A DNA stretch of 64,000 bases from contig MGUU01000024.1 in NCBI GenBank assembly GCA_001800135.1, positions 31,844-95,843 on the forward strand, given 5' to 3'. Positions within the stretch are counted from its first letter, which is position 1, and every line of letters begins with the position of its first letter. Shown here piece by piece: positions 25,094 to 62,900 of the stretch. The notes beneath the pieces were generated by a model that worked only from the letters and a program-made list of their open reading frames with translations, was not told the origin of the DNA and did not search any database. Position numbers and translations under genes: made by a program. This DNA comes from Elusimicrobia bacterium RIFCSPLOWO2_02_FULL_39_32 (GTDB lineage Bacteria > Elusimicrobiota > Elusimicrobia > 2-02-FULL-39-32).

Positions 25094-25100
25094 TACCAAA

Positions 25101-25295: not shown

Positions 25296-28200
25296 ATGAA
25301 AAAAATGTTTTCCTTAGTTCTGGCAGCTTCTTTGCTCTTTAGCATGGCGGCCCCAAGTTTTGCCCAAGCTAAAATCTATGAAAGGCAAAGAGTTGACCAG
25401 CTGCGCGCTTTAAGCCAATTCACAAAAAATCCTCTTGCTTTAGTTGTGCAACACCTTGCGGAAAAATTGGTTCAGAATCCAAAACAGTTCCATTTATTTT
25501 ACGAACAATATATCCATGAATTAGAAACCATAAGTAAAAAAGAGAATGAGTTTAAAGTTCCATTTAAATCTCTTGCCAACAGATTTCTTTTCGCAACCCC
25601 GATTTTTAGCGTACGAGATGAAAAAATTTATGTTTTAGCCGCAATCAGGGGAAAACATTTTCAAACCAATCTGGCGCTGATATTTTCTAAAGATGGGAAC
25701 TTTGAGTCTAAGGTAGAAAAAGATTTTGAAATCAAAAAATTACTTACAGAAAATGAATTCAAAGTAAATGAAAACTGGGAGCTTAAAGATATAAGAAGAG
25801 GACTATCCTTATGGCCTAACTTCCTTGTAGAGCCTCAGAAAGAGGGATCAAAATTAAATTTTAAACCGAATCAGCTTATCGCCGATCTTCATGCAAAGAG
25901 CCCTTTTAAAAAACAAGACAGGATAAAGAAAAAAAGTTTTGAACCTTGGGTAAAAGCAGCATCCATTCTTTTAGTTTTAAACCTCACTACTCTTTTAACT
26001 CAGGGCTGCGTTTCAGTAATAACGGAACAATCTTCCATGTCTGTAGCTTCTTTTCCTTTTATGAATCTTTATTTTACGGCGATTGCGTTAATCTTATTGA
26101 ATCTATACAGTCTGATCACTAAACATCAAAATTATTTTCCAGCTTTTGTTTTTTACCCCTATTTTTCAGTAAAGAAAGTACGGTTGCCAGATTGGCTATT
26201 TCTATCCAATTTAATACCCGGCAAAGGGAACGAGCCAGAGGGCAAATCAGCCCAACTAAACGAGATTCGCGCTTCTGATGGAGAATCGGAGTTAGAACCG
26301 GCTCCCCAAACAAAAATAAATACAAAACATATCACAGATGGATTTAATAAAGTTCGGCTGATGGATGTTACAGGAGTTGAAAGGCTGGGAGTTATGGGGG
26401 ATGTGCAAGCAAATTATTTGCAGATGTTAAATGCCCTTGAAAAATCCGGATTTATTGACAGCAAAGGAGATTGGATTGCAGGTTCAGCAGTTCTTATCTT
26501 TGATGGAGACTTAATAGACGGCGGGCCAAATCCATGGGAGGTATTACAGTTTGTTTATAGTCTTCAAAACAAGGCGAGCGCTCAAGGAGGAAAAGTCATT
26601 GCAGTGATGGGCAATCATGAATATATGTTTTTAAACAGCGTTGAAGGAAGAGATCGCTACGCGCGAGAGTTGATTTGGACCCATTGGTTGAGTGATGACA
26701 ATGCCATGACCGGGCTCAATACTTTGAAAAAATTGCTTGGCAGAGAACATTTAGATTCAAACTGGGAAAAAGATAGCCATGCTGAGTTAGGGTATGCGGT
26801 TCAAAATAGAGAAGAACTTTTAAGAGAAATTCATGAACGGTATCCGGAATTGAATAACATTCTAAGATGGATGCAGCATTCCATGCCTTATGCGGTGCGA
26901 ATCAATGAAAATGTTTTGGCAGCGCATGCAGCTCCAGATTTTTATGCCAGGACATTTGAAGAGATCGCTTCTAGCGCCAGAGGAGAACTAATGACTATAC
27001 AGGATAGGGAATGGGTCAGTAATTCTCAACGCGTAAGAGAGTGGATGAAAAGGTTGGGATTTGAATATTTTGTTTATGGTCATACCTGCCAAACTCCAAT
27101 TGGTGTAGGGAAAAATGGAGGCATTCAAGGCAAAGTCAGTCAAATCATGCCTAAAATTTACAATATAAATACAACTCCTCGTCAGGCAGCAGAGGGAGGG
27201 GCTGCGGCTGTTCTAGAATTTTTATTTGACAGAAACTTAGCGCATACTGTTAAAGTGACCTATGGGGAGAACGAGTTTGGCTTAGAAGATGAAATTTTTG
27301 AACATTACTCAGTTAAAGTTTATCGCGCTTTTATGGAGGCTGCGGAAAAAATTGGGGCTAAGGGATTACTTGACTTTATTACCAAGAACATTAATCACAA
27401 AAATATGGTTAGACAATCTTCAGAAGGTCAAGTCTATAAAATTGAGGGCTTAGAGGATTATGAACTTCACCTCCCACCAGATATTAAATTTGATGATTTT
27501 AAACCTGTACAGGATCCTTTTCCAAAGAGTAATTTTGGTCAGGCGGTTGCTCAGTTGGGCAGTGTGACTATTCATAAGAGATTATTCGGAGTTCCCTATA
27601 GTGTATCTTCCCTTTCATTTGAAGAGAGTCCAACTTTAGATTCCCTATATGAAAAGCATCTTGAGATTGCCGCAGGAATGGCTCAAAGCGCTTATGACAA
27701 CTTAGCCATAGACTTAAAAAATATTCAGGATGCTGGTTATACGCTTGATTTAACAAATTCAAATAATATTTTTATTGATCCAGAACATTCAAGATTTCAA
27801 CCGCATCAACTGATTTTAGAAAAAGACGATTCATTGACTCATGCTTCAAGGTTGGCGGCTTGTCTCCTCAATCATGAGTTTGCGGCAGAAAAATATAATG
27901 GAAAGGACCCTCGCATATTTTATTGGCGAAGATTAATCCTTGAAAAATCTTTAATCGCAGCTCAAACTAGTGGACTCATATTTTCAAATGAGGATTATCA
28001 GAATCATGCATTATTTAATTTTGATTCTGAAATGGAGTTAGCTTTTGAATGGGCCGGCTTAAAAGGAGAATGGCCAAAAGTACAAAGTAGGATGATGGAA
28101 AAAGTCGAGGTTCAGAAAATTTTTTCAGATTATCCATCTACTTTACCCAAAAAGGGATTGGTTTTGTCTAGCAGACAGAGAGCAGGCTTAAGAGGTTTTG

Positions 28201-31200
28201 AAGAGATTTTTTACAGCGCTCTTTTAGTTGGTGGAATAGGAGAAATCTGGAATCATCTATTTTGGGCAGCTCCCACGATTGGTTATTTAATCGGTTCTGT
28301 TATCAGCCTGCTCCTCTTTATGAAAACACACAAAAAACCAATTTATTTAACCTCTGAAGGCGTTCTCACTCACGCACCTCCTTTAGGAATGGATGAAGAA
28401 GCAGCTCAACTAAGAGCAAAAAAAATTCTTTTTTTAATAGCAGTCACTCTACGATCCATTTATCTTTTAACTCTTTATCTATCTCCCTTTGGAAATATCA
28501 TTGACCTGATCCTTGCAACCATTGCAGCTATTGTTGCGCATGGGTTTATTTATAACAGCAAACTAGCTCCAAGATATTATTGGCCTTTAGCAATGGCTTC
28601 TCCAACTAAGCGAACCGAATTTAAATCAGAACAAGATAGAGAACGTTCAGAAATTGCTGCGCGTTCCATTAAACATGGTTCATGGAATGAACTCTCTATT
28701 AAATTATCCGTTCTTTATAAAGCCATGACACAATTAGATGAGCCAGATCGTTTAAGTTTAGAAACAGGAGATCATCTTCAAGGGCTTAGGGATCGTTTAG
28801 ACCTTTATGCTGAACGAGTCAGCCTTCAATTTCAAGATCATGAACTGCTTGAGTATAGAGAAGTTTTAGAAATTTTAATCGGTTTTTTAAAGAACGAAAT
28901 TGGACCGCGTCTTAATAATAAAGCTTTGATCAGCCTTTCAAACCATTCTACTCTTCAAGTTTATCACACCCGTTCCATTGAAATTATAGAGGATTTAATT
29001 TCTTTTATTGATGGAAATATAGAGGAACGGAAAACAACATTTGGAATTAAGGAAGTAATTGAGGAAGCGTTCGAGAATGTATTTAATGAATCATTTAGGG
29101 AAAGATATGCGAAAAGAGGGAATGAAATTACTTTGGAATTTGAAAGTTTTGAAAATAACCTTATTGAAAGTGCTGGGGACAGAAGAAAAATTCTAAATGT
29201 TTTTAGAACCTTATTTATGAACACAAGGCAGGTATGGCAGGAGAGATTACAAGCTGAAGCTAAAGACAATGTTCCGCCGCCTTTATCCTTAGAGTTGAGC
29301 GTTAAATTAAGATGGGTTGGAGATAAACCTATTCTTGAAATAATAGATAATGCAGGAGGATTTCAGAATGACGGGCTCTTGGATGTCCCAGAGAGTCAAG
29401 AACCAGATCGGCAAAAGATGTTTTTCTTAAATGTTTCAGAACGTAAAGGAGGATCTGGGTTAGGTTTAGCAGAAGTCTGGCATCTCATAAAACTTCACAG
29501 CATTAAAGATCAGCCTGCATGGATTCATGCCAGCAATCTTTCAGATCACAAAAGCAGAAAAAAAGGAGCTAAATTTACTATTTTTCTGCCAGAACTTATT
29601 GTCAAAACTGAAAGTAAATCAGAGGATACACCAGATGATCCAAACATAAAGATACTTAATAAACATAATTGGATTTTGTCTAAAGCTCGAAGGGAATTAG
29701 GACTCAAGCTTGCTGGACGCGGCGGAGGTTATTTTAGATTTTTTAAGGAGAAGGGACTGCTGCGAGAGTTAAAGAAAAAGATCATTGAAAGATTAATTGA
29801 ACACCATTGGAATTTTATTAAAACAGCTCAAAGTTTAGGAATTAACGAAATAACATTAAGAAATTTTAGAAAAGAGCTTAAAATCAAAACTTCTAGAAAA
29901 ATAAAGAATTCTGCTGCTAAAGTCAGATCAGAAAACAATCCAATTATCTTTGAATCTTCAATGATTTCAGATGAGGAATTATTGAGTAGAAAACCTTCAT
30001 TAAAACCTACAGTTAAGAAAAAGAATCAATTTATCCAAGGGCTAGATATTTTTGCAGATATGGTTTTAGCTGACATGAGAAGAAATGGCGTAACCCCTGA
30101 AGATTTTATTAAAGAGGCGGAAAAATATGCGTTAGTTCGTATGGAGATTTTATCTAGGCTTAACCGCAAGGATAGAAAATTCTTTGCGCAATATACAGAT
30201 AATAAAGAGCTGGAACTTATTTTTAAGGCTATGGAAACAGCTGAAACCTATTTGGGAAACTCTTATAAAAATTATTTTGTTGGAATTATAAAAGACTATT
30301 TTGAAAAAGGTTCTTCATTTATTTTTGAAGATTTTTGCAGATTAGACCTTTGGTTTAAACAGAATGATGAATGGTATAAAAATCTTTTTGACATTCCAAT
30401 GGATTATAGACCCAGAGAAAATGATATTGGCGCTCTATTTGAAGAACTTACAGGTTTTAGTTTGGAATCCATTCATGACAGGGATGGGGTACTTTCTATC
30501 CCCTATCTTTATTATGCCATGCAGGTAAGAAAGTCAGTTAATCCTGAACATAAACCACTAGTTGCGGTATATGGCGGAGCAGGCGCTGATATTTCAACAT
30601 TTTTATTATCCACAGATGCTTCTACAGGTTATTTTGTTACGCAAAATCAAGTAGATGCCGAACAACTTAAAAGTATGATGGAACAATGGGATTCAATAAC
30701 ATTTGATGACGATTATGCTAAAGATAAAAGGCTTTATGGTTTTGGAAATGGCGGAACTCTTGATAAAAGAAAGGGCGCAATTTATAAAGCGATAGTCCAA
30801 GAACTAAAAACAATTGGAGTTAGAAAAGAATCTGTAAGAATTGAAAATAAGGATGGTCATACAAAAATTATTTTAGACTGGGTTTACCCGGGGACCAATC
30901 AGCCTAGAACTTATTCAATTACTTATATAAAGCAGCGGTTGCAGAAGATTGGCAGCCCTGAAACAACTGACCCTTTGCTTAATTCTGCGCTTGAAAAAGG
31001 CATTGATATCTACTATCAAAAAGCTGTACAGGATACAAATAACTTATGGGGTCAATTCTTGCCTAGGGTTGCAAAAGCAATTAGAGTGGGAGGCGCTTCC
31101 ATTACAGATGATTACCAATCCATAAGCGGTATTCACAACCCTGAACCGTTTCTTAATACAGAGTCACATCATTTTGTTTCACTTAAACAGAATTCCTCTA

Positions 31201-34200
31201 AAAAAATATTCGATTGGTGGAAAAAAATAATTCCTTCAAAATCTAACTACGGTTGGGACGTAACGATCAGAATAAAAAAAGAACAACCTCAACAACAACT
31301 TATTACTGCTGTCGCAAAAGCCAAAGATAGAACAAGTGGCGTTAAAGCAGAGGACCTGCCTTTAGTGGCATTGGCGGATTTGGTGGCAACAGATATGGTC
31401 AGGGCTCATATCCCTCCAGAAAAATTTGCGGAAAAAGCAGAAGAATATACGATTGCAAGAATTTATGCGCTTTCTAAAATGGATCCGAAATGGTTAGAAG
31501 AAGCTCGAGATTTTACAATAACTAAAAATTTAAAATTAATCTATACGTTACTTCAGACTGCAACTATAAACTGGGGGGCTGAACCCCAAGTTCAGCTTGC
31601 AGGCTTGATAAAAGCTTATTTTAAAAGTAAAGATTTTAAAGCTCTGCTTCCTCAATTTAAGAAAGAATACGATCATGTCCCATCTAATTTTTCTCAGTGG
31701 TTAAATAAAAATAAGAAAATAGTTCTTTCAAAAAGATTTAAGAAAGGTGAATTATCTAAAATTGTCAGCCGCATTACAGGGTTTAACCCAGAAATTATTA
31801 AAGACCGCACCTCAGTTCTTTTACTTCCCTTTGTTCATTACGCAATGTCAGTTTGTGAGATTGTGAACCCGGATCATAAAGATTTAGTGGGACTCTATGG
31901 CGGAGCAGGCGCTGATATTTCTTCCTTCCTGCTTTCAACAGACGCAGGCACAGGGTATTTTGTTACAAACAATAGCGTGGATGTCCATAAATTACAATCC
32001 TATTTAAGGGAATGGGATTCTAAAACAGTCGAGTCTGATTATACTGACCAGGAGTACACTTACAAAAAACGTTTGAGGGGTTTTGGAGAGGGCGCTTTTT
32101 TACAAAACAGTCCTGAAAACATTTATTGGGCAATTGCAGCTGAACTTAAAAGCATGGGAGTAGAACTGAATGCCATTGAGGTTGAACTAGATCAAGGAGA
32201 TACAAAATTAAGTTTCAACTGGGCACATCCGGTTACTAATAAAAATCGTAAATATACAATTTTTTATATTAATTCTAATGTTGAAAGTATTGGCAATGGA
32301 ACAGGGGACAATAATCTTTTAAATAAAATTTTAGATTCAGGCATTGATTTTTATTACGAAAAAGCAGGGATGAACATTCATAAAAGTTGGGGGAAATTTC
32401 TTCCCCGCATTGCAGAAGCTATTAAATTAGATGGAATGGTTATTATTTGCGATTTTGACGGAGATGAAAGACCAATAGACTCAATGCCGCATTTACAAAA
32501 ATTAGGCTCAAAGTTTACTAGTTGGGGAGAATCCCTTTCCATGCGCTGGTGGCGCATGTTTATTCCTTCTCATTCCGGTTATGGATGGGAAGTTAAAATT
32601 AGAAAAAAAATAAGAAATTCCATTGCGATACAATTTGATACAACTGAATGGGATAGCGAACTATTAGAGTTTTACAAGCTGGGAGAAATAGAAAAATTGC
32701 AGAAAATTGTATTAGAAGAATCTGGTCTAAGGCGGATGGGGCAGGCCATGAAAGCGTTTGAATATTTTCTTCAAGAAGATTTAAGCACTGATTTTGGCAA
32801 AACTTTATTTTCGAGCATTCATGAAATTAACAGTAAAAAACCTTTAGCAATTTCTCAATCCCTTGTTTCAGTTTTGGAAGATGTGTTAAGGCGCGGGAAA
32901 CTGAGCGACATCAATTCTGAACAGGTGATAAAATTATTGATGTGGATTATGATGCAACAGCCGCATTTGATTAGCGAATCCATTCGGGAAACATTAGAAA
33001 TTCTGCTGGAAAGAAAAAATCTCAGTTCTCTTGAATTTAACGCGATTGAGAATCTTATTAGCTTAGCAATAGCCAAAAAACGACCGGATAGAATCTCATC
33101 CTTGTTCGTTTTTGCTGCGGTGAACATTCTCAATACTGACAATATTTTTTGGGATCGTCCTAGCAAATGGTTTAAAAAAAGTAGGAGGGACAGCCTTTTT
33201 TATTCTTCCGCATGCGATATTTTAAAAACCATTGCAAAACATAGGCCAGAGCTAATTTTTGATCCAATGATTGTTAGAGCTTTAGAAAGAGTTTTTTCAT
33301 ATGATGAGCTTGAACCTTATGTGGTTTCAGCCGCAGCCCAGGCGATTGAAGCTATTTTCCAGATCCATCCAGATTTTATTAATGCCAATACTCTTTCTGT
33401 ATTGAATAGTTTCATTCATACTGCGAAAAGAAAGAAATTAGAAAGTTATGCAACCCGCCATATTAATCATGCTATTTTAGAAATTATTAAAAAAAGAGGC
33501 AATTTATTATTTAATCCCGATTTATTGTCCACACAAGAAGAAATATTGCGCACTAATGGGCATGAAGATGAAGTCTATAAAAGCGCTGCTGAGTTTATTG
33601 ATATCATTGCTGAAAATCGCTCTTCCTCTATTCAGGTATCAACAGTTGAATCTTTAATTCAATCTTTACAGAGAAAACAGTATGTAGAGGCTCATTTTGT
33701 TGGTAAAGACGAATCAACAACTAATTATGGCATGGTATTAGGCGCTTTGATGCGGATTTTAAAATCTCGTCCTGATCTTGTGGAATTAGAAAGATTAGTT
33801 GAAGCAGTTTGTAAATTTCTAAAGAATTCCGAACGCCTCTATCCCGTTGGCTTTAGCATACTTAAACAGATCACCTTAAAAGCGCCGGCAATTTTGCAAT
33901 CAAACCACATAAAAATATTAGAAAAGCACGCTAGAAGACTTTTAGGTAAAGAAACGGCTCATTACAGTCAATTTCTTAAACCCATTGCTGATTGTTTTAA
34001 AGAAGTTTCAAGAGCCAGAGCTGATCTTATCCAATTGTCCACTGTATCGCTTTTATTCAACCTTTTAAAAATTAAGGACCTTCGTAAAGAAACTTATATG
34101 GCAGTCTTAGACACTTTTAAAAATTTAATTCAGAAAAGACCAGAATTTAATAAAGAAATATTTTTTGCATTAGAGTACTTAATGATGCAAAAAAGGCACG

Positions 34201-37200
34201 AAGCAGAAGAATACCGCTATGCCGCTCGCTTAATGAAAAAAATAATAAAAGCCGAACCAAAATTAGAAAATGGGAGTGTGTTATACCCTATTATAAAAAT
34301 ATTGCCGGAAAAAATATTAGGCCATCCCTTTCATCATTGGCGTATCTATACTGACAATTATTTTAGAGCTTGGATGGAAAAAGTTCAGTCAAATAGTGAG
34401 GCTTATTCGGTTTCTAACGCGGTTTATGAACTTTTAACGTTTTCTAACCTTCGTCTTTCCAAACAAAACATTAAAAAAGGTTTAGATTTGATTTTAATTT
34501 TGAGAAGCGTTTTATCTGTACCTCATCCAGATAACTTAATGTATGGACCCAATGTGACTGCCATCAATATCTTGCATCAAGATGAAGAGTACAGAAAAGA
34601 GAGAATGGAAACGGTTCAGATTTTGGCGCGCGTTAAACCAGAACAGATCAAAACATTCAAAGGATTTGAACAAAAAGAGAATGCTTTAGAAGCGATCAGA
34701 CAAAGCAAAGGTCCAACAACTATCTATATTCATGCGCATGGGGATGGGGAGGGATTTAGTTTGGATAGTAAAGAAGTAAGTTCTCAAAATACTGCCAATG
34801 ACCAGAAACGCCCTATTGATGAACCTTATTCTATCAGTCACCGCGAGTTAGTAGATACTCTTCTAGAAAGAGGAAATTTAAGTGAAGTTAAGATCATATT
34901 TGATTGTTGTTATCCACGCGATCTATCCAGGACTTTTATTAGTTATCTAACTGAAAGGTGTGTGTCCGATCCTGATATAAGAGCCGGATCTCCTTTTATT
35001 ATTACTGCAAATGGTGAAGGCAGATTTATTTATACTGGGATATTCGCAGAAGGCTTAAGAAGCGTGCAAAAAGCAGGCCGTTCACTATATGTGGATGATA
35101 TTTTTAAAGCTGAAGATGTTATGTTTGAATATGAAGATCCTATTATTTTGTTGCCGATTGGCAGCTCATTGTTTGAATATATGCAATCAAAAATACCAAA
35201 AATTCTTTATTCACCGCTCTTAAATATAGGCGCTATTTTTGGAAAAAAGCACAAAGATACAGCGCATTATTGGGAGTGGGTGTATCAGACACCTGTTCTA
35301 TCTATTTTTTCAAATGCGATCGCGCGTATGGTTGGGAAGAAATTAGGAGTCAAAAGAATTGAGGATCATTTAGGAGAAGCCCCTTACTCTAAAACAATCA
35401 GCCTCATTAGCTCTCTAGTTTTGATCAGTAGTTTTTTAACAGGTCACAATCTCATCATTATCGCCGCATCTGTTTTATGGTCTTTAGCCAGCGGCTATGT
35501 TTTTAGCGGAGCTCACAAAGGAAGGGAAAGCTTTAATTTGCAGGTGGTTGGTTCAATTTTAGCAGGAGTGACAATCGCTCCTGCTATTTTATTTTCTTTG
35601 ACTCTTAATTGGCTTGGCTTAGAATTACCATTCGTGGTTAGCGCAATAACTTATGTATTTCTCCTCGTGCTCGGGATGTTCTGGAATATTCATCTCCATA
35701 AGGAATATAACGAAAATATTGATGAAATATCTCAATGGCTGAAAAAAAATAGTCCTCATTCATTTAAGCGTTTCCTGCCATCTCATCTTAGTCCTGCTAT
35801 AATTTTTTCTGAACCCAGTAGATTAAAACAAGTTGAATGGGTTAAGAAATTGCATTTAGAAGAAAATAGAAATTTGATTAATCCTATGGAATTAGCTCTG
35901 GCTGATTTAATGGACTATCTAGATGCTGAGAGTTTTTTTGAAGAGTACTGGTGGTGGAAAAATTATTTAAGCGTTCCTGAAAGTTACCAATTTTCTGAAG
36001 ATGATTTGACTAGAGCGTTTAATTCATACTTAACAGAATTAGATGAAGCCGATCAATTAATTAAAATTGATCTCAATGGAACTGAACTGGACGACTTTAA
36101 ACTTTTTCTTCTTTTAAATCAGGTAGAAATTTTAAAGTCAAGAATAAAATTAAGATGGAGAGAATTTGGTTTATCTCACATCAATCGAGTTGTTTATCAA
36201 AGGACAGGAAGAGTTTTTCCTATTGACGTAATGATTTCCAATCTAAATGAATTAAACCCATATAGAGATCCGTCAGAGTCTAATTCAATTCCTGAAGAAT
36301 TAAATTCCTTATTTGCTAAGCATGAAGATTTTCCACATTTTGTGGAAAGATCCATGATTTCATATTTCGGTCCTTTATCTTCACTCCAAGAAAGATTGCA
36401 AATAGAACTTAAGCAAAGGATCCTTGCGGATCCTGCTCTTATTCATAAATTGGTTCGCTTAAGCTCTGAACAGTTTTTTATGTTATCGGATCCAATCATG
36501 GATTGGATTTTGAATATTAATAGTGAGCGGGTGGAGATCACTACGGGTCATAGAGTTCTTCAAGATGGTTTTGAAACAGAGCAGGTAACCTATGAAGGAA
36601 CACCTTATCATAAAATCAGGGAACTCCTTCCTGCTTTAAACCTTAGCTCATCCGATACTCTTTATGATTTAGGTTCTGGTTACGGCCGTTTGCCGCTTTA
36701 TACAGCAATTACCACAAAGGTAGGAAAAGTAAAAGGAATTGAAATATCTCCTGAAAGAGTCGCTGAAAGCGATCAAGTAAAAGATCAGTTGGGATTAGAG
36801 AATGTTGAATTTGTTCAAGTAAATATCAGAGATTACGATTTTAGCGATGGAACTGTATTTTATTTATTTAACCCTTTTAACGATCAAACTTTAGAAATTG
36901 TGGTTAATAAATTAAAAGAGATGGCTCAGAAAAAAAAGATACGGATTATTTCTTGGGGAAGATCTACATCTTATTTTAACCAGCAAGATTGGCTAAAACT
37001 TGTTGCCACAGTTGGCTCTGGCCCGTGGCCAATGGTGCTTTATGAATCCATGTTTCATAGCGCGAATCCAGAAGTGAATGTATTAGAATCAAAAATTTTA
37101 TCCCAAAAGATCATAAAAGGAATTTTACATTTAGAAAGCTTTTTGGATGATCCGGACCCAGACGTGCGGCGCATGGCAAACGATGTAGCTCAAAGAATTC

Positions 37201-40200
37201 AAGCTGCTTTCATGCTTAAGGAAGATACTCCTTCACCAAGTTCAATATTGGAAGATGAAGAATTGAAGACTGCGGAACAGAGCCTAAAATCACATGATGA
37301 AGAAGCGAGATGCCGAGCTGTGCTTTCACTAAAAAAACATTACCTTGCGATGATTGCAGGGGGAAAAATTCCAGATCTTACTTTGATTGAAGAAAGACTT
37401 TCTGATCCTGATTTTTCTGTTCGAAGAACAGCCGCAATCGCTTTAGGTTACCTCTATTACATGCTAAAGAAAGAAATTTCCCAATTAGAAAAATATTTAG
37501 AAGATGATGAATGGCGCCGCATCATAGGCGTGATTGCATTAGGGGAGATATTTGCTTCTAATATTAGAGAAGGAAAAGTGTTGGAGGAAGACTTTCAAAA
37601 ATATCTTCTTTGGAAGGCGAATAGCCTTCCTTATCAAGAAGAGTTAGTAACTGACTACTTAGAATCAGAAGAACCAAAAAGTTTTATTGATGCTCTTAAA
37701 AGAAAAGCGGAAAAGATTATTCGCGAAGGTTTTAACTATAACCATTCACAAAATTTATGGCTGGCTTTTCTTGGCATTCGATTTAATGGCATTCATGTGA
37801 GCTGGAAGGATTATAGTGAAAGGATGGAAGATGTGATTGAGCTGGATCAAGAGTTACCCGGCTCTTTTCGCGCGCTCTTCTCTAAAACTAAAGGGTTAAA
37901 ACCAATTGAAATCAGCCATAAAGAATCAAAACAGATTGACGCGAGTCAAGTTAATACGCAGATTTTAGATGAACATCTTCAAGAGTTATTAGAAATAAAA
38001 GAACGGATAGATAGCCTTCATTGGCTAAAGGATTTTCAGGGAGACAAAGATTTTAATTTGCGCAATCTCTATTTTATATTTAAGCGCGAGCAAGCGATTG
38101 ACCGCGGTGAAATTAAAAGAGCTGGGAGGTACAGGGTTCTTTACCCTTCTGAAAAAAAGTTGGCGGCGGAATTAAAGACCGACCTTAAACTTTTATATAA
38201 AGTTTTGTTCCAGCTCGCGCATAAAAAAATAGGGAATGAAGCCCTAAGGGATAAATGCGTAAGTCTTATGAGGGATTTAACTTTATCAGAAGCGCTATCA
38301 AACAGGGATCTGGCAAGTGAAATGATGTCGTCTAATATTGAAACCAGAATCATTGCAATTAAGAATTTTTATGAAGATTCTATCCATCACTTGCCGAACC
38401 ATGCGGTCGGTCTAAATGCAAAACAAATTAAATCTTTAGATAAAAGTATTAAAGAACTTTCAAAAGCAGTTTATGCTGAAATAAAAAAAGTTATTTACTT
38501 TGAAACAACTAGCAATGATACCTACCGTTTGATTCCGCAAGGGTTCCTAAGTTTATTTAGAGGGCGATCTGGAATTATTGATTGTTCATTTGATAGAGAG
38601 CGCGGATTCCCGCATACTCGCGCCATGCACGAAGATACCCTTTACTATTTTGTCTATAAAGGCCAAGAACTAAAAGGGTATGTTGGCTTAATGATTGGAA
38701 TAAGAGATGATGGTGAAAAAGTCTTAACTATTGATACGATTAACTCTCCTTCTCTTAACAATGAAGAGATTCTAATAAATCTTTTTAACGAACTTCACAA
38801 GGTCGCGCAAGAATTAGGGGCCATTGGAATTGCGCTGCCACAAAACATTGAAAATGCTCAATACTTTAATTTTGAAAATAAAGACGTGATTCCTAAAATG
38901 AGTTTGTATAAGAACGGTAAAAAAATTAAGTTAAAGCCAGTCCATGACGAAAGCTGGAGCGTTTTTACGGAAAAGTTTGGGGAAGACCGCTACAACAGCA
39001 TGGAAGCAGGAGATTTTATACTGTTAGATTTAGCAGACTTAGCAAACAGAGAAACCAATGCTGTAACGCATCTGAGAATAAAAGAAGAAATGAGTTCCTT
39101 TCTTTCCAATAGTTCTAAAAATAAAGAGGAGATTGAGAACTATCTCACTGAATTCAAACGGGATGGCGAACCATTATTTAAAAGATCAGATATTAAAAGA
39201 ATACTGGAGTTATCTTGGATAAAGTTGGCAAAAAGAGCGGCATTATTGGAATTTTTGATTTTGTTTCAAATTGATAATCGGTTTGTGTTTAATGGCAATC
39301 AAATAGCCAGGATCATGGATAATGCAAAGAGTCCGGAAGTTATTATTAGAACCATTAGGTTCCTTGTTCAAGAAAGTTTTTCAGACGGAGCTCATATAAG
39401 CTCAATTGTAAGTCATCCAAGGAATTTAAAGCAAATTAAGAGATTTATAAATTATTTAGTTCAAGCAGCCATTGAAGATAAATCTCATATGGCTCAAATT
39501 ATGAGTAGTTCCATGAATTTAAAAGAGGTTAAGAAATTCATTGCTCGTCTTTACAAATTAGGGTTTACAAACAGTTCTCACCTGAGCCAAATTTTAGGAA
39601 GTTCAAAAGAGCTAACAACCATTAATGACTTTGTCACTTTTCTAAATGGGTTAGGGATTCTGGATAGCGCTCAAATTTCAAGAATTATCAGGAGAGAAAG
39701 ATATCTTGCCGGTATAAAAAAAGTTGTTGATACCCTTAAAGCTGAAGGAATTCTAGATAAGTTTCAGATCAGGTCTGTTGTGCGAAGCACGATCACCCCA
39801 GCCCACATTAAGCGTTTATTAAATCAAATTGAGAGAATGGGACTAAGTGAAATTGAAAGAAGGTATGGAAAAGATAATCAAGGTCAGTTGGAATTTTATA
39901 GCGCCATCTTTCCAGAAGAACTTTCAAAAATGTCCTTATCAATTCTCTACCTAGTTTTACCAAAAGCGATTAGAAATAATAAAAGAATACTCTGGACAAA
40001 ATTATCCTGCAGTTATAATGATGCAAAAATACTGACAGAAATGAATATAAATAATAGGGGAGAAATTCATGTTGCTAATTTAATATTTCCGTTTCAAGAT
40101 TATAAAGGATATGAAGGATTCACTCGCCTCATCAGTAAAATAAGAATTCAATCAAATACGCTTTTATCTAAATTAGATCCTGCTAAATATTTGTCTAGCG

Positions 40201-43200
40201 TTCCAGATCATATTCGCAAGGAGATGCACTGGTATTATTCCCCCATTCTTTATCTGCTTCAAGACTCTATTCATGGTGAAGAAGATTTTACGGATTCAAG
40301 CATCTTAGGCGCAGGCGATAAAAATGAAGAAACTATAGTTTTAGGCAGGATGAAAGAAGTATTGGGAGAGAATGATTATCATGCTTTAATGGAGCTTCTT
40401 CGCAATCCAAAGCGAACTGCTCAAGAAAGAGAAAAGTACAAAGGACTAATTAGATTGAGCAGAGTAAGGATAGGGTTAGAGACAACTAAGAGATTAAAAG
40501 CCGGGATTATTCCAGAGGTTGAAGATTGGTGGATGAAACATTTTCCTAAAACTCCAAAACCTGTTTATCGGCTTATGATAGCCCCTCTTTTTACAGAGGG
40601 ATCTTGGTTAAATTTAGCTCCGCTTTTAGCAGGAGAACTGTTATTACAGGCGGGGCTTGGCATTGTTCCAACCGGTGTTTTAACATTTTTGCTCAATATT
40701 CTTGTGGGAGCGCGATTTATTGCTTTGCATCCTGCTGGCTCACGCGCTATTCCTATTTTTATCGTTGTCATGAATAGTATCGCACTTCTATATTTTTATC
40801 CTTTTGTTCAGTGGCATTCCAAAGAGATCGTGCTTTTTAATGCTTATTTAGGAGGTATTTTCACCCATATACTTTTGAATGCGTTTCAAATGATAATGGA
40901 TTGGGCTTCTGACGATAACTATAGGAATTATTTATCTAATGAACTGGATAAGCATAAAAGAGATATTGCAATTGGCAGGCAGAGATTTAGATCAGAGTCA
41001 GCTATAAGCAGCGGTCTAAGAGAACCAAATCAGACCCATGCGTTGACCCAGCCAGAGATGCTCTCTCAATTCCTAAGCCGTTATCCTCAAATGGAAAGAG
41101 CATACAGCAGAAGTTTTATTGAAAGGCATTGGCATGCTTTTCAATCTTTGCATTTAATTGCGGGAAAATATGCGGATTCTATATTTTTTGTTGCATTGCC
41201 GGCGTTAAGCCGCTTGGTAACCAAAAATAATATCAAGGAGGTAGGAGATCATCTAATCCTACTTGGGGAAAGAGCCGGAGAAGATTATGAAACTGTTTAC
41301 TATACTTTAGCTGCTCTAAAAGAAATTATTACATTACAAAACCTAAATTCTATATCAGAAGAGACTCTTTTTCTAAATAAATCAGCAAAAGGGAATGCCG
41401 GTCCAATTTTAAGTTTTGCGCTTTATTCGCTTAGAGAAATAATTACACCAAACAATTTTTCAACTGTTGGCGCTGAACTAATCGCCCTGCATCGTTTAGG
41501 AACTAAGAATTCTGGCGCATATTTTTGGATTTCGTTCCTTGCAGTAAGCAGGATTACAACTCCAAAAAATTTGAGATCTGTTTGCCTTGATCTTTTTCTT
41601 TTAGACAAATCTGCCGGAGAGGATGCTCGAATTCTATTTGAAACAGGATTTTTATCAATTAGAGATATGATTACCGCGGAAAATTTAATGAAAATCGGAC
41701 TTGATCTAATCATATTATTAAGAGCCGCAAAACAATATAAAAGATTTCTATTTAATAATATCATCCCAGCGCTAAAGGTTGAATATGGAGAAAGATGGAA
41801 CAAATTAAACTGGGAAGATATTAAGAATCGTATTCTAAAGACATTAGAGGATATTCACAATGGCGTACTAAATACAGCTATTTTTAAAAAGAATACGCAT
41901 GATGTCATTCAAAGAGAGGATGTTTTAACTTATCAGAGGAATAAACCAATTGATATTACAGATCCTATGGTACGACAGCTTTTAAAAAACAAAATAGAAG
42001 ATTCAGCGTATAGAACTGCTGTTCTCAACCAGTTTTATCTCTCTGAAGCATGTGAATATTTTGATTCTCTTGTTAAAGAAGACATGTGGAATAGTTTAGG
42101 AGCTTGGAAATTTTTAAAAGAGATTTATCGAAGATTTGGTTCTCTTAAAGGGAAAACAGTCATAGATTTGTATGCAGGCCCAGGGGTTGGAGTCGAGCAA
42201 TTAATTCGTTTAGGCAGTGTTAATGCAATAGGCATTGAAACAGATCCAAGATTTGTAGAATTTGCCAAGCAATTTGGAATTCCTATTATACATGGCAGCT
42301 TATTAAAAGAAGAACTTAAAACAGCTGTTGAAGAATTGATTGGGAATAGGAAAGTCTCTTTAACTTTTTCTTATGGTCTTTTAAATAATATATCGAATAG
42401 GAAAAAAAGATTAAAGATTTTGCGCTCTATTTCTTCTCTTACTCCAGTAGGCTCTTTTAGCATTCATGGCACAAAGCATCGCATCCCAACTACTAATGAG
42501 GAGTTTAAAAGCGCAGGCTTTAGGATCATTGAAATCAATAGAGAACGGACATTTGTAGTTTTGTTTAAAGAAAATGAACCAGAAGATTGGGATGCTATTG
42601 GCTTTAATCCTTTATTTGATGATACTGAGAAACCAGAAGATGACAAAGAAGATAGAAACAGCGATAAAACTGATGAATCCTCTGTTAATGCTATTCTGAG
42701 CGCAACCATTTCAGCTCTACCTATTTTTCTTGAGCCTATAACCTCTTCTTCTTTTTATTTTGGGCAGAACTCATGGGATAGATTGACTTTAGAAACCCAG
42801 AAGTCATTGAGAAGGTCATTTGGTACAGAGCCATCATCTAATGTTTCTATTTCTCAATGGCTTGGCAGCAGATTGGCGATAGGAGCAAGAATCAATAAAA
42901 ATCCGCTCGCCATCCACTTGCTTAGTGAAAAGATAAATTTTGCGCGTTCACTATTAGAATGGAAACAATTAGATATAAACGAAATAATAGGAAACGCATT
43001 TACATTATTTAGAAAACCCAACTGGGCATTCGTTAAAACTCCTAACATGATATTTCAGATGGGAGGAACTCTATTTAGGGAAAATAGTTCTGCTTCAAAT
43101 GTTCAAAGCAGCATTGAGATGCTGGCTAGGAATTTGAATGAAAAGGCTCCAGAGGTTATCAATCAAAAAGATTCAATAAAAATTACAGTAAGCTATCATG

Positions 43201-45894: not shown

Positions 45895-45975
45895 ATACCA
45901 CTTAAGAAACGGCTGCGATCTCTGCCTTGTAGAGCTTTAGCAGCCTTTACAGATAGAATCCCAGGAGGTAATGTT

Positions 45976-46590
45976 ATGCCAGGATTAGTCCCTACGATTA
46001 TAGAGCGTTGGAATCAAGGAGCCGCAGTAGGTTATGACATCTATTCGCGACTCTTAAAGGATCGGATTATCTTTGTTGGAGGTTATGAAGGCGCAGTTAC
46101 CACAGATTCCGCTAATCTGATTATTGCCCAGCTGCTTTATTTGGAAGCGGAAGATCCTGAAAAAGATATTAATCTATACATTAATTCTCCGGGCGGCATG
46201 GTCAGCGCTGGTTTGGCTGTATATGATACCATGCAGTATATCCGACCGCCCATCACCACGATTTGCATGGGTATGGCCATGTCTTTTGGCGCTCTGCTTT
46301 TAGCAGCAGGCACTAAGGGTAGAAGATTTGCTTTGCCTCATTCCAGAATTATGATTCATCAGCCTTTGATTTATGGGGAGGGCATTTCAGGATCTGTTAC
46401 GGATATTGACATTGAAACCAAAGAGTTGGTAAGCACAAAAGCAAAACTTTTAGATATTCTTGCCAGGCATACAGGCCAAACTTTGGAAAAAGTAAAACAG
46501 GACTCAGAAAGGAATTTTTATATGTCTGCTGAAGATGCTAAAGCCTATGGCCTTTTAGATGTAGTGATAGAGACAAGGAAAAAATCTTAA
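45976..46590 (+). CDS. clpP: ATP-dependent Clp protease proteolytic subunit
   Basis: [25 protein letters not shown] catalytic Ser, MIHQP. Confidence 0.97.
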
Positions 46591-46594
46591 AAAA

Positions 46595-47884: not shown

Positions 47885-47888
47885 AGAT

Positions 47889-59998: not shown

Positions 59999-62900
59999 TT
60001 ATGCTTGGAATTTAAAATGTAAGGTTTGTCTGTGATATTCTTCTGTTTTGTTTAATTCTAACCCTAGTGTCTCTTTTTGAAGAATAAGTTCATTATCTTT
60101 AAATAGAATTTTTCCATTTTTTCCTGATAGTTTTCCTTGCAGCATATTTTTTAATATTTTTAATTCTTTGCCTCTTACTTTTAGTTCATCTCCAGAGCTT
60201 AAAGTTATAGCCCACTTTACAGTCTGTTTCCAATACTCATTTTCAGGCCGATCTGTAAATAGAGTAACAATGGATGCGTTTTTTTCTATTGCAAGATTTA
60301 CCGCCTGTTCTGGCGTTTGAACTGTAAAGAGCACCATCTCTTCTGGAATTTCTAACTCAAGCAACATGGTCTGAATGATTCTTTTTGCCTGATTTGATTG
60401 CACAATAAACCCGATCTTAGGATTTCGGTTGTTTTCAGAACTAGAGTGAAGAGAGATAAATTTTACTAGACCTAGGATCCAATCCTGATATTTTTGAGGT
60501 AGATCAAAACCATCTTCTTCTATTGCCATATCTTCTGGAAAATCAATGAGATGGAGCGGAAATTGTTTTGTATTAGATTCAGCCTGAATCGCAGCCTGAT
60601 TGATTTGGTAAGAACCATAAGAAAAGGGTGAGAGCTCTTGTTTTACAATTAACTCAATCTCATTTTCAATTTTTTCTTTAGTTTTAGTGATATTCTTCTC
60701 TGACTCATTGGAATTTTTTGGATGGGAGTTTAAAGAAGGCGTAAGCAATTCAGGAAGCAAATTTTTAAGCAGCGCTGCGCTATAAAGACCATGAGCTAGA
60801 ACCACAATAAAGTAGGGAACCAGATGGTTTAAGATAGAAGATGGCAGCGGCAGAAAGTTGAGAGAGACTATGTAGATAAGACTAAATAGTAAGGCAGGGA
60901 TTAGATATTTAATAAAATTGGGCCAATCCTCTTTTTCTTTGTAGTTCCAAAGAAGAATACCTTTATCCCAGTTTTGATCGTTCGCTCTTATGACCCATCT
61001 TACCATGATGTGAGAAAGGGCAAAGCCAAAGGTCATCCAACCAAGTAAGGAGGAGGTATATAATAATTCTTGAGTATTAAAACCTAAACTGCTGATTAAA
61101 ATAATAGGAAGAACTCTAAACAGCGTTTCCTCCCAGATGGGCGCAACTACTTTTGGTTCTCCTAACCAGTAGAGAAGGTTATGGAACCGTTCTCCAAGAT
61201 GAGAAGGATTGCGAATTCGTCCTTTTAAGTAATAGGGGTAAAAAATTGAAGCTGGGATTCCTCCATTTCTGAACTCTGCTAAAAATTGAGTTCTTGTATG
61301 AGCTTTTGTTTCAGATTCTGCAATGTCGTCCGCGCTATAGCGAATAGTCTCTGGCCCATTTCTTCCATGCCGTCCTATGAATCGTTCTAGAACTTGCTGC
61401 ATTTTGGCAGGCACGTCTCGGGTGGATTCAGCCCATACTCCTTGACCTTTATGGTAGAGATCTAAAATCAGTTCAGCTCCTTTTCCTATTCCAAGCCCAA
61501 CCACCACAATATGAGGTTTACTGTTAATCCATTTTCTAAATCTGTCGCGGCTGAACTGGAAGTTAGGATCTCCATCGGAAAAATGAATTACAAGATTTAA
61601 TGTGTTTTTTTCTTTTAAAGGAATTCTTTTAAAAGCATGGTACATGGCTCTTAGATCATTATTCCCAAGATATGTCTTAGCCACCTTACTCATCACTTCT
61701 ACAACTTTTTGTTTGTTGAGTTTTTCTCCATACTTAAAATAGAATTCCATGGGTAGATTATCATGGAATCCAACCACTTCTAATATAATTCCTTTTTTCT
61801 GGTCCTCTTGGATAGCAAGAAGCATCATCAATACAGCATCTGCCGCTGCTTCAATCTTAGCCCCATCCATACTTCCGCTCTGGTCAATTAAAAGAGATAT
61901 TCTGACTTTATATTGTTTTGGAATTTTTCTTTGCTTAAAGATCAGATCCTCGCCCGCTACAGCTAAAGGCAGCGCCGCATCATCCAGCATTCCTTTTTCT
62001 CTCCACCTCTGCCAATATCCCACCTGTCTTTGATAGAACTTCCTAAACACAGTTTTCATTCGGTTCACATCTGTTTGCACTCTTTCGTAACGCGCATTGT
62101 AATCAGCCTGTTCTTTTTCTGTGATTCCTTCTCGATCTCTTTCTTCTTTATCTCTTTTTGCAGCTTCCTCCTCTTCTTCCAAGCGTTTTTGTTCCTGTTC
62201 TTCATCATAACGATCCTGTTCTTCTTGCGCCCTTTCAATGGATTCTTTAAGGGATTGGATCGCTTCTTTTAATTTATCTTTGTCTAACGGATTTCCATCT
62301 TCGCCGACCATTAAGGGTGGAGCTATCTCTGGCCGATTTTTATCTTTTTCCCCTAATTCTTGTTTAGCTTGCTTAAGTAACTCTAATTTTTCTTCTGGAC
62401 TTAAACTGTCCCAAGCTTTTTTTAACTGCTGCAACAACTCCTTTTTTTCTTGGTCTGACAGTTTTTCCCATGGAATTCTATCTCCAGCTTCTTTTCCTTC
62501 TCCTCCTTTTCCTCCTGCAATTGCTTTAGATTGAGCTTTGTCTTCTATAGATTTCTGAACCAAAGCTTGGAATTCTTCTGTGTCATAGAGTTCTTCCATC
62601 TTTTTTTTGTGTTCAGCCACCTCTTTTGTTAAATAAACCTCTTTTGCGCGATCTTGTAAAGTCTCAATCGCATCTAAAACTTGCTGGTTAAGAATCGTTG
62701 GATCTTTTTTTCCATAGACCCATTCATAGATGACCCCTAATGTAAATTGAAAATATAAAGGTTGTTGCGCCATAAGAATTTGGTGTTCTTCCAGGCTTTT
62801 ACCATAACGGGTAGGAGAATAGGTTTCATCATATCTTGCCATCAGCCAGTTGCGGCTGCCTACAAAATCTTCAATACCTTTGAGATTGATCCAAATATCT

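Follow-up and report, generated by a model that had tools for sequence, protein, structure and literature searches.

Embedded membrane modules with probable distant kinship to CPBP/Rce1 proteases in giant proteins of an Elusimicrobia bacterium

Do the four-helix membrane modules that recur in two giant proteins of this bacterium belong to the CPBP/Rce1 intramembrane proteases, and do they cut the proteins in which they are embedded or anchor them? Both giants are encoded in the window, i.e., the whole 64,000-nt stretch of DNA analysed here. In the published description, four helices (TM4–TM7) make up the CPBP domain, EExxxR being located on TM4 and HxxxN on TM7, and the Glu/His/His/Asn set of Rce1 and MrtX has been assigned to water activation and the oxyanion hole (PMC11980579).

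The first giant open reading frame (ORF), P0001 (6091 aa; positions 25296..43571, + strand), carries the modules m1, m2 and m3. A hydropathy scan revealed a hydrophobic signal-like segment at its N-terminus and a 2-TM hairpin, m0 (aa 221–274; 25956..26117, + strand), in which the CPBP motifs are absent and for which an iterated HMM search of the genome returned the self match but no paralogues. Pfam matches comprised Metallophos (aa 363–598), a SAM methyltransferase (aa 3784–3857) and HEAT repeats (about aa 3995–4081), and weak matches to HATPase_c-like and Fis-type HTH domains were seen downstream of m1. The second giant carries m4 and lies on the − strand; the C-terminal 1333 aa are inside the window (59999..64000), the ORF runs past the window end, and the open frame in the genome comprises 2644 aa. 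Upstream of m4, Pfam matched the final part of an AAA_5 domain and, in addition, a VWA domain. Since this protein has a single module, about 260 aa before its C-terminus, it is capped rather than partitioned. The initial annotation had described both giants as partitioned, which applies to the first, with its three modules, but not to the second.

All four modules of about four TM helices were found where they had been placed, with every quoted motif string. Module m1 (aa 959–1101; 28170..28598, + strand), recognized by its motifs and family alignment, has four helices and the strings EEIFYS (EE at 969–970), FMKTH (H1012) and HGFIYN (H1082, N1087). The Arg of EExxxR is absent and the spacing of the third motif is H-x4-N. 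In the family alignment (13 sequences, enlarged to 22) E11, H54 and H124 are invariant, and the final Asn is kept in 13 of 13 sequences. Module m2 (aa 3313–3476; 35232..35723, + strand) was defined by motifs, family alignment and an AF2 model (pLDDT 93.7, pTM 0.87) with two short pre-helices followed by four long helices. Its strings are WEWVYQ (WEW, E3327), FSGAH (H3407) and HKEYN (H3468, N3472). In the model, the conserved E3327 sits in a short amphipathic pre-helix and the four core helices lack Glu. The m2 family alignment (26 sequences, enlarged to 42) has invariant F91 and H95 and a nearly invariant H156. Module m3 (aa 5069–5205; 40500..40910, + strand), defined by the same three kinds of evidence, was modelled as four long helices preceded by one pre-helix (pLDDT 90.7, pTM 0.79). 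It contains APLFTEG (TE, E5101), FIALH (H5145) and HILLN (H5191, N5195), with one Glu only and no Arg of EExxxR, and its alignment (9 sequences, enlarged to 43) shows invariant H77 and H123. Module m4 (60779..61201, − strand), recognized by motifs and a sub-threshold PF02517 match, has APIWEETLFR with the canonical motif 1 (EETLFR), FALSH and HGLYS; m4 and its family retain the His of motif 3 and lack the Asn. The reading of these strings as CPBP motifs with retained polar residues therefore needed qualification. The His are kept throughout, while Glu and Asn are kept in part: the Glu of m2 is displaced to a pre-helix, m3 has a single Glu without Arg, the Asn of m1 is shifted by one position and that of m4 is absent.

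Direct searches did not assign the modules to a family. In the PF02517 check that had been proposed for them, none of m1–m4 reached the cut-off; m1–m3 were without a match even at E ≤ 10, and m4 gave E = 0.017 and 15.8 bits (16.3 bits in a six-frame search; cut-off 22.4). An NCBIfam scan returned no match, profile searches of PDB sequences matched nothing relevant, Rce1 was not among the structures retrieved by fold searches with the two AF2 models (m2 and m3), and in the ESM Atlas m3 matched generic membrane families only (≤0.86) and m2 nothing. Apart from the fold searches, these results would agree with a resemblance by chance, i.e., generic four-helix bundles with His and Glu but without CPBP kinship. 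The same applies to the motif statistics within the 6091-aa ORF. We counted 5 occurrences of the pattern F...H(25–110)H...[ND] where 1.25 were expected, and three or more arose in 12% of 1000 block-shuffles; the motif count within this single protein is not beyond chance.

Comparison of the families argues against such a chance resemblance. In profile–profile alignments, the m1–m4 families were interconnected at 84–97% with motifs in register, while controls reached at most 20.7% (next 2.1%) for 156 reversed templates, 7.3% for reversed controls with the deep m3, m2 and m1 alignments, and 11.6% for 50 pairs with unrelated, motif-less TM-module families. The hhalign values were 94.6–95.7% for m1 with the m4 family (110 columns with all three motifs in register in the 94.6% alignment), 94.6% and 89.6% for m3 (43 sequences) with m4 and m1, and 83.8–94.3% for m2 with m1, the second and third motifs being aligned with each other. 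In each of the separately built m1–m3 families the motif His belong to the small number of invariant or nearly invariant columns. Invariant motif residues persist across families at 21–40% identity, and the motif His are invariant or near-invariant in the m1–m3 families and, where covered, in the m4 family. In the AF2 models of m2 and m3, FxxxH ends the second long helix and HxxxN lies within the fourth.

Links to the CPBP proteins themselves were also obtained. With an alignment of 38 CPBP domains from relatives, mostly of standalone ORFs, module m3 (43 sequences) reached 89.8% (E 1.8e-6), and motifs 1 and 2 fell into register. Against standalone CPBPs, m4 reached 56% and m1 67.3% with 13 sequences and 79.7% with 22, a value that may be inflated by the partial sequence L226 with its canonical EExxxR. 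The scores of m1 and m4 against standalone CPBPs (28.9–33.7) did not stand above the single best reversed control (31.4) and were far above the second best (22.6). In HMMER searches the m1 profile directly matched the PF02517-positive ORFs G052:C154 (350 aa) and G022:C41 (PF02517 47–49 bits; m1-profile E 1e-5 to 3e-4 per genome), and the enlarged m3 HMM matched the PF02517-positive module of a 6542-aa ORF on contig C16 (E 9.4e-5). Many m3 relatives have the full EExxxR, and the m3 profile recruits such proteins, e.g., P0014 (E 5.5e-11 against the whole library). Counting against the kinship, PF02517 itself matched only 1 of 13 m1-family members (E 0.12) and, of the 29 m3-family proteins found, only 2 of the 10 shorter ones that were scanned (E 0.27 and 0.8). 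Giants of this genome contain about 10 modules of the m4 family, one of which, on contig C17, passes PF02517 at 25.5 bits and so strengthens the case for m4. Directly compared with standalone CPBPs, m2 gave 6–9%, which is not significant, and it is placed in the superfamily via the m1 link only. We concluded that distant membership of m1–m4 in the CPBP/Rce1 superfamily, as claimed in the initial annotation, is supported, at the profile–profile level only. Homology to CPBP is highly probable for m1, m3 and m4 and still probable for m2, and a chance resemblance appears very improbable.

The arrangement extends beyond this locus. Taken over all 46 of the genome's ORFs that reach 1500 aa, the same F/H/H/[ND] pattern was enriched, with 77 occurrences against 26.4 ± 5.1 in shuffles (n = 100, maximum 46). 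A census of the genome yielded 33 modules of five divergent subfamilies in 18 of these 46 ORFs, with up to four modules per giant. G000 and 60 relatives together gave 101 PF02517 matches, 19 of them within open frames of 1500 aa or more; of these 19, which were spread over 12 of the 61 genomes, 16 exceeded the cut-off. Embedded Rce1-like modules in giant proteins are thus a general arrangement, not confined to the window. At class level (393 genomes), the m1 and m2 families were each present in 26 genomes and the m3 family in 10; 26 of the 39 m1 match rows fell within frames of at least 1500 aa. Among 1.84 billion representatives, the m3 family is rare, with 29 proteins at E ≤ 0.001.

These distributions bear on the possibility that the modules are active CPBP proteases with substrates in trans, such as lipidated or C-terminally tagged envelope proteins (cf. 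myxosortase) or bacteriocin-like peptides, the fusion merely co-localising the protease with the other activities of the giant. Characterised CPBPs are described as cutting separate substrates, prenylated CAAX proteins in the case of Rce1 and MYXO-CTERM proteins in the case of MrtX (PMC11980579), and the genome encodes two standalone CPBP ORFs (349 aa, 61.5 bits; 237 aa, 34.3 bits). However, a few substrates would hardly explain 33 modules of five subfamilies in 18 giants, and the m1–m3 families lie mostly inside long frames in the class-level searches. We regard this explanation as unlikely.

The charge distribution of m1–m3 suggests how the modules may sit in the membrane. Lys plus Arg numbered 5/3/4 (m1), 5/2/4 (m2) and 5/1/5 (m3) in the N-flank, the loop between helices 2 and 3, and the C-flank, and 0 in loops 1–2 and 3–4 of all three, from which we infer an in-in topology with cytoplasmic flanks. 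Read literally, the N-terminal signal-like segment and the 2-TM hairpin would place the blocks outside the cell, which conflicts with the in-in reading.

As the best explanation overall, to which we give about an even chance, we propose that the CPBP-related bundles tether the giant and that at least m1 and m3 also cleave it or its siblings. Each module would be a self-contained four-helix bundle that the chain enters and leaves on the same, cytoplasmic side, so that large soluble blocks (putative phosphoesterase, histidine-kinase-like/HTH, methyltransferases, HEAT repeats) would be separated by dips of the chain into the membrane. The loop with the motif-2 His would share a face with both flanking linkers. 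Modules m1 and m3 retain a Glu on core helix 1, FxxxH where helix 2 ends, and H-x3/4-N on helix 4; m4 retains EExxxR and both His but no Asn, and m2 both His and Asn but no core Glu. The modules would hold the giant at the inner membrane, and at least m1 and m3 would cut juxtamembrane segments of their own giant or of sibling giants, turning the precursor into membrane-proximal enzyme units. Catalytic competence and the substrate, self or sibling, are predictions from sequence. We put the chances of proteolytic activity in at least one module of the first giant at about even, and consider self or sibling processing less likely than not. No cleavage-site motif was established.

Alternatively, the CPBP-derived modules may have lost the ability to cut and may serve as membrane staples or scaffolds, keeping cytoplasmic enzyme blocks at the inner membrane, with the conserved His and Glu serving helix packing, metal or lipid binding, or a non-proteolytic reaction. 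The canonical set is broken in every module: m1 and m3 lack the Arg, m1 has H-x4-N, m2 has its Glu outside the core and m4 lacks the Asn. Non-proteolytic uses of the CPBP fold have been described, with LnsB acting in lipoprotein N-acylation (PMC7387801) and CflP reported as noncatalytic (PMC13692083), and some such members lack catalytic residues. The TM-module families c0, c2, c4, c6 and c7 of the same genome are without such motifs, indicating that plain anchoring modules are common in these giants. When the two closest genomes were compared, the modules (76–91% identity) were about as similar as their flanks (80–86%). On the other hand, the invariant intramembrane polar residues are those that do the chemistry in Rce1 and MrtX and would not be needed by an anchor, and the m1 and m3 families, embedded in contrast to the stand-alone LnsB and CflP, keep the full Glu/His/His/Asn set. 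We consider the loss of cutting possible but less likely than not; a derived anchoring role and built-in cleavage units are, in our judgement, equally alive.

Compared with MmRce1, eukaryotic Rce1 and MrtX as described, the modules share the four-helix core with the acidic, FxxxH and H-x3-N motifs on helices 1, 2 and 4, and m4 shares the canonical EETLFR. The known enzymes stand alone, are a few hundred residues long and have 7–8 TM helices (MrtX, 239 aa; PMC11980579), whereas m1–m4 are bare cores of about 130–165 aa, one to three per protein, and the hosts of embedded modules comprise 2600–14000 aa. Among published cases, the one that comes closest to an intramembrane cleavage unit built into its own substrate is that of the PrsW peptidases, which are fused in cis to polymorphic toxin domains and were proposed to process and release them; PrsW is described as a distant relative of CPBP and APH-1 (Zhang et al. 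2012, PMC3482391). In those fusions a single 8-TM peptidase is N-terminal and the toxin C-terminal, whereas in the giants studied here several 4-TM modules lie internally, flanked by enzyme-like blocks, and toxin domains were not identified. PrsW (PF13367) had no match in the genome at E ≤ 1.

Giant proteins with many interspersed TM helices have been described from Omnitrophota and further phyla of the PVC group (West-Roberts et al. 2023; PMC11573180; 2026 Omnitrophota preprint), and the giants described here share this very long build. Elusimicrobiota are named in these papers among the phyla enriched in giant proteins, and self-cleavage into smaller polypeptides was proposed, via C39 and S8 peptidase domains; C39 is absent from this genome at E ≤ 0.01. 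TM regions were deliberately omitted from structure prediction in the 2023 preprint. The main text of these papers makes no mention of CAAX, CPBP or Rce1, nor, where sought, of PF02517, and within this scope the initial view of the arrangement as undescribed stands. The distant kinship of the modules with Rce1/CPBP proteases suggests that these two giants may be cut up or anchored by enzymes embedded in their own chains.

A scan for open reading frames identified a first giant of 6091 aa on the plus strand (positions 25296-43571) and the C-terminal 1333 aa of a second giant on the minus strand (59999-64000), the open frame of which comprises 2644 aa in the genome. According to the hydropathy scan, the first giant has an N-terminal hydrophobic segment and a hairpin of two TM helices (aa 221-274), and its further membrane helices group into three clusters (about aa 966-1090, 3330-3475 and 5090-5205). 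A single membrane-helix cluster is present near the C-terminus of the second giant. The initial annotation had described four modules of about four TM helices with the motifs EExxxR, FxxxH and HxxxN (motifs 1 to 3) of CPBP/Rce1 intramembrane proteases. We found all four modules at these positions (m1, aa 959-1101; m2, aa 3313-3476; m3, aa 5069-5205 of the first giant; m4, 60779-61201 on the minus strand), and all quoted residue strings were present.

The Pfam domains of the first giant were Metallophos, SAM methyltransferase and HEAT repeats, those of the second giant AAA_5 and VWA. The block directly after m1 (about 29292-29936, aa 1333-1547) gave weak matches to HATPase_c (E 0.0015) and to a Fis-type HTH_8 (E 0.035). 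If true, these matches would represent a membrane-tethered signalling or DNA-binding unit beside a protease-like module. The first giant also contains a tandem duplication at about 30051-32609 (aa 1586-2438). The two copies (about aa 1586-1994 and 2026-2438) share 38.9% identity over 422 aa (E 2.9e-94), each carries a YGGAGADIS motif, and no Pfam family was assigned. Directly upstream of m2, the strings HAHGDG and DCCY (aa 3146 and 3203; about 34731-34910) are located about 57 aa apart. They resemble a caspase-like His/Cys dyad, as in clan-CD-type peptidases, a reading that received no support from Pfam or from PDB sequences. Downstream of the first giant (44584-50216, plus strand) a housekeeping proteostasis cluster encodes trigger factor, ClpP, ClpX and Lon, and upstream on the opposite strand (21830-25099) lies the gene of a 1089-aa protein that carries a peptidase domain of the M6 (immune inhibitor A) type.

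An orthologue of the first giant is present in the sister genome (G001, locus L008, G001:C19:55206-58673) and corresponds to about 26800-28300 of the window. About 50 aa ahead of m1 its reading frame changes over a gap of some 160 nt; one frame aligned with residues 506-908 at 92% identity, another with residues 907-1000 at 86% identity. As a consequence of this frame change, the open frame of 5104 aa in the sister genome begins just before m1. An assembly error, a pseudogene or a genuine split at the boundary of the module could account for the frame change.

The genome of 2.52 Mb (97% complete) comprises 46 frames that run from stop to stop over at least 1500 aa and add up to 213,822 aa or about one quarter of the genome. 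The longest frame has at least 18984 aa and runs off the contig end; others have 13472, 11491 and 10747 aa. Interspersed TM clusters occurred in nearly all 46 giant frames, and 117 clusters were counted under a looser rule. As far as the accessible parts of two studies report (PMC11573180; a 2023 preprint), Elusimicrobiota are among the phyla most enriched in huge, poorly characterised proteins. Giant bacterial proteins are known to be frequent in Elusimicrobiota, in Omnitrophota and in phyla related to them, yet they are almost uncharacterised, and in the same parts of both studies it is an open question whether they act as a single chain or are cut into pieces. The TM regions of giants have mostly been viewed as plain anchors, and the 2023 preprint left them out of structure prediction.

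We compared the three motifs within the family alignments of the modules. Motif 2 was present in all of them (FMKTH in m1, FSGAH in m2, FIALH in m3, FALSH in m4), and its His was invariant in the m1, m2 and m3 families and conserved in the m4 family. In the m1-m3 families the His of motif 3 was fully or almost invariant; in the m4 family it was found in all 9 rows that reach this column, 2 of the 11 rows ending before it. For motif 1, a full EExxxR was present in m4 (EETLFR). Module m1 (EEIFYS) has the first Glu (E11) invariant in 13 of 13 members and the second Glu conserved, with no Arg. Module m3 has a single Glu (TEGSWL); the consensus of its 43-member family is EE, and many members have the full EExxxR. 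The first long helix of m2 has no acidic residue, and a conserved Glu is located in the pre-helix. The complete HxxxN of motif 3 was found in m2 (HKEYN) and m3 (HILLN), while most members of the m1 family have H-x4-N with the final Asn in 13 of 13 members, and m4 and its family lack the Asn.

The catalytic-type positions stand out in the families as a whole. E11, H54 and H124 are the sole invariant columns of the m1 family, and F50 is nearly invariant. In the m2 family F91 and H95 are invariant and H156 nearly so (consensus vFSGAHkGr ... H..YN). H77 and H123 are invariant in the m3 family, for which 43 sequences gave the consensus P..EE ... F...Hp.g.R ... H...N, and the m4 family has the consensus wEe..fr ... 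gF.fsHtiVrW ... H. The earlier claim that polar E/H/H/N residues are retained in all modules thus stood for the His residues in all families; it did not for the Glu of m2, which lies outside the core, nor for the Asn, which is shifted in m1 and absent in m4. These motif deviations lend support to the main rival to a proteolytic function, namely that the modules are protease-derived staples without a proteolytic role, as do the non-proteolytic members of the CPBP family known from the parts of the literature that were accessible. A conserved GG(I/V)IP string, common to the m3 family and to a further family of TM modules in giants (c1), marks the start of an amphipathic pre-helix about 30 residues before motif 1 (e.g., at 40500-40520). 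Candidate roles of this string are structural, or that of a recognition or cleavage site.

The assignment to the CPBP family was not confirmed by the Pfam model PF02517 itself, since none of m1-m4 reached its gathering cut-off of 22.4 bits. Only m4 gave a match below the cut-off, with 15.8 bits (E 0.017) for the module alone and 16.3 bits in a six-frame search of the genome. No PF02517 match was obtained for m1, m2 or m3 at E<=10 with the modules alone, nor in the Pfam scan of the whole protein, and the NCBIfam scan of the modules returned no family match. Among the family members, PF02517 was detected in 1 of 13 of the m1 family (E 0.12) and in 2 of 10 shorter proteins of the m3 family that were scanned (E 0.27 and 0.8). 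The six-frame search of the genome resulted in six PF02517 matches. Two of these were standalone ORFs (349 aa, 61.5 bits; 237 aa, 34.3 bits) and four were located in giant frames: one in a 4880-aa frame (25.5 bits), two in a 6542-aa frame (25 and 13.1 bits) and m4. The 25.5-bit module, which passes the cut-off like the 25-bit module of the 6542-aa frame, is a paralogue from the m4 family. Since PF02517 matches lie inside giant frames, embedded CPBP domains are a fact in this genome, independently of the motifs that were noticed at first.

To relate the modules to CPBP we used local profile-profile alignments (hhalign). The CPBP reference, built by iterating the domain of the 349-aa ORF over the PF02517 loci of this genome and its relatives, comprised 38 aligned domains, mostly from standalone ORFs. 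The m1 alignment matched CPBP with a probability of 67.3%, with EE and FxxxH in register. An m1 alignment of 22 sequences reached 79.7%, a figure which may be helped by a single partial sequence in which motif 1 is canonical. The values against CPBP were 56.1% for m4 and 6% for m2. Shallow m3 alignments of 5-9 sequences gave 2.8-12% against CPBP and no significant link to any family (<=12%). The m3 link emerged only once a library-wide profile search had added 29 proteins: the alignment of 43 sequences matched CPBP with 89.8% (E 1.8e-6), m4 with 94.6%, m1 with 89.6% and c1 with 96.6%. The m1 alignment of 22 sequences matched m4, m2 and m3 with 95.7%, 94.3% and 91.4%, respectively. An m2 alignment of 42 sequences matched m1 with 90.8% and all others with at most 19%, and m2 is tied to CPBP only via m1 (83.8-94.3%). 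In the pairwise alignments the motifs were in register.

Reversed templates served as controls. The maximum among 156 such comparisons was 20.7% (score 31.4) and the next value 2.1%; 50 control pairs with TM-module families lacking the motifs stayed at or below 11.6%, and reversed controls of the deep alignments at or below 7.3%. The scores for m1 and m4 against CPBP (28.9-33.7) were about level with the best reversed control (31.4), and these two links therefore rest more on bridges found with HMMER. The m1 profile matched two ORFs of related genomes (G052:C154 and G022:C41) that have PF02517 scores of 47-49 bits, and the enlarged m3 HMM matched the PF02517-positive module of the 6542-aa frame (E 9.4e-5). 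When the m1, m2 and m3 alignments were searched against PDB sequences, only chance-level matches to GPCR, transporter and ribosomal chains were returned (best E=0.012, the rest E>=0.2). At the level of sequence profiles, the hhalign and HMMER comparisons demonstrated a detectable, distant homology to CPBP for m1, m3 and m4, and through m1 for m2.

A count with HMM profiles of m1, m2, m3, m4 and c1 over all frames of the genome yielded 33 modules, distributed over 18 of the 46 giant frames. Two more came from shorter frames or fragments of 1330 and 315 aa, and both standalone CPBP ORFs were recovered with a sixth profile, which had been derived from standalone CPBPs. Iterated HMM searches within the genome found no paralogue of m1, m3 or the hairpin, about 8 modules of the m2 family across 4 giants, and about 10 of the m4 family including the 25.5-bit module. 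Homologues of m1 were present in 12 of 61 relatives and, across the class, in 26 of 393 genomes, with 26 of 39 match rows in frames of at least 1500 aa; those of m2 in 10 of 61 and 26 of 393, and those of m3 in 6 of 61 and 10 of 393 genomes. The homologues of m1-m3 in related genomes lay mostly within very long frames. Module m3 is rare: a search of 1.84 billion representatives matched just 29 proteins at E<=0.001. A search with m2 alone found no homologue among longer proteins (388-2000 aa searched), and the region 3300-3520 of the first giant retrieved only itself and the orthologue from the sister genome.

Embedding in giants was also seen for PF02517 matches beyond this genome. In this genome and 60 relatives, 19 of the 101 matches at E<=0.001 lay in frames of at least 1500 aa, 16 of these 19 exceeded the cut-off, and the 19 were spread over 12 of the 61 genomes. 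Examples are a 2423-aa frame (59.9 bits) and a 13760-aa frame (56.8 and 41 bits). Other TM-module families of the giants (c0, c2, c4, c6 and c7) had no link to CPBP by hhalign, so the CPBP-like cassette is one of several kinds of membrane modules in giants. The c0 family (10 copies; for example C10:29527-50514, C12, C15, C17:3-7145 and C27) has a strongly conserved stretch of roughly FFAPhYEFLDTFNPvQFFKSH. Like c0, the families c2 (10 copies; for example C16:232571-284045) and c4 (7 copies) are unannotated and have no CPBP motifs. The arrangement of the modules is variable: homologues of m2 and m3 are separated by about 336 aa in one relative (G005) versus about 1600 aa in the first giant, and the block content varies.

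AlphaFold2 models were obtained for m3 (pLDDT 90.7, pTM 0.79), with one short helix and four long helices, and for m2 (pLDDT 93.7, pTM 0.87), with two short and four long helices. In both models FxxxH closes the second long helix at its C-terminal end and HxxxN lies in the fourth. The Glu of m3 is located in the first long helix. In m2 the conserved Glu lies outside the core and belongs to the first of the two short helices. The models thus predict a four-TM-helix catalytic core for m2 and m3. For m1 a four-segment layout was deduced from sequence and hydropathy, with three segments flagged at the threshold. In the accessible part of PMC11980579, the CPBP domain has four helices (TM4-TM7), of which TM4 carries EExxxR and TM7 carries HxxxN; Glu and the motif-2 His hold a water molecule, and His and Asn form the oxyanion hole. 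The models of m2 and m3 matched the layout published there, except for the Glu of m2. Foldseek searches against the PDB gave best E values of 0.59 (m3) and 1.3 (m2) and none at E<=0.001. These searches and VIA-align of both models against 48161 representative chains gave four lists with generic helical bundles and no Rce1 or CPBP among the 50 matches listed in each, all without a positive control. In the ESM Atlas the best score of m3 was 0.86 (Wzy-like, generic), and m2 had no usable match.

Lys and Arg were counted in the three modules of the first giant. The counts for the N-terminal flank, loop 2-3 and the C-terminal flank (25 residues on each side of the module) were 5/3/4 for m1, 5/2/4 for m2 and 5/1/5 for m3, and loops 1-2 and 3-4 had none in m1, m2 or m3. 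Under the positive-inside rule, this distribution places both flanks and the motif-2 loop in the cytoplasm. We infer an in-in topology, in which the active-site face would be directed toward the flanking linkers. A cytoplasmic location fits the domains of the blocks, the SAM methyltransferases and the weak HATPase_c and Fis-type HTH after m1. It is at odds with the N-terminal signal-like segment and the two-TM hairpin if these are taken literally.

Our results established that the modules exist, recur, conserve catalytic-type residues and have a four-helix core. Catalytic competence would be most plausible for m1 and m3, and the predicted substrate of active modules would be the giant itself or sibling giants. 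We tentatively propose, as a rather improbable reading, that the giant membrane proteins of Elusimicrobia-like bacteria are bacterial polyproteins in which several embedded minimal CPBP-type proteases cut the precursor at juxtamembrane linkers. The products would be enzymes and regulators, either tethered to the membrane or released, such as the histidine-kinase-like/HTH block that follows m1 and the methyltransferase blocks that follow m2 and m3. One gene of 18 kb would then supply a stoichiometric and co-localised enzyme set, and dozens of giant genes would have acquired the CPBP core as a portable "cut-here and anchor-here" cassette.

The closest proposal in the literature concerns the peptidase PrsW in fusion with polymorphic toxins: the accessible part of PMC3482391 suggests that it extrudes and processes them. 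This 2012 toxin paper was the only publication found on giant proteins together with CPBP. At E<=1 the genome had no match to PrsW (PF13367), and Pfam scans of the modules at E<=10 showed none either. As for Omnitrophota giants, the available parts of the source suggest that their precursor is cut by peptidase domains of the C39 and S8 types. Neither C39 peptidase nor PrsW, as alternative processing enzymes, had a match in the genome studied here. The terms CAAX, CPBP and Rce1 were absent from the main texts of the papers on giant bacterial proteins that were searched, and PF02517 was absent where searched; supplementary domain catalogues may list PF02517. The CPBP family itself is known, and less divergent embedded copies will already be flagged by automatic annotation. 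What appears to be new is that giant proteins repeatedly contain the bare four-helix CPBP core as an internal cassette, that several CPBP-like subfamilies escape Pfam and NCBIfam, and that giants can be given a testable processing hypothesis.

The profiles of m1, m2, m3, m4 and c1 cover what the current Pfam and NCBIfam models miss, and the module boundaries allow the giants to be divided into foldable or expressible units. In this genome, a large share of the TM clusters of giants consists of minimal relatives of an intramembrane protease family that conserve its residues, which supplies a concrete and mutable hypothesis for the processing of these proteins. If the modules are active in cis, the CPBP fold would have been put to a new use; if they are inactive, a protease core would have been recycled as a membrane staple.
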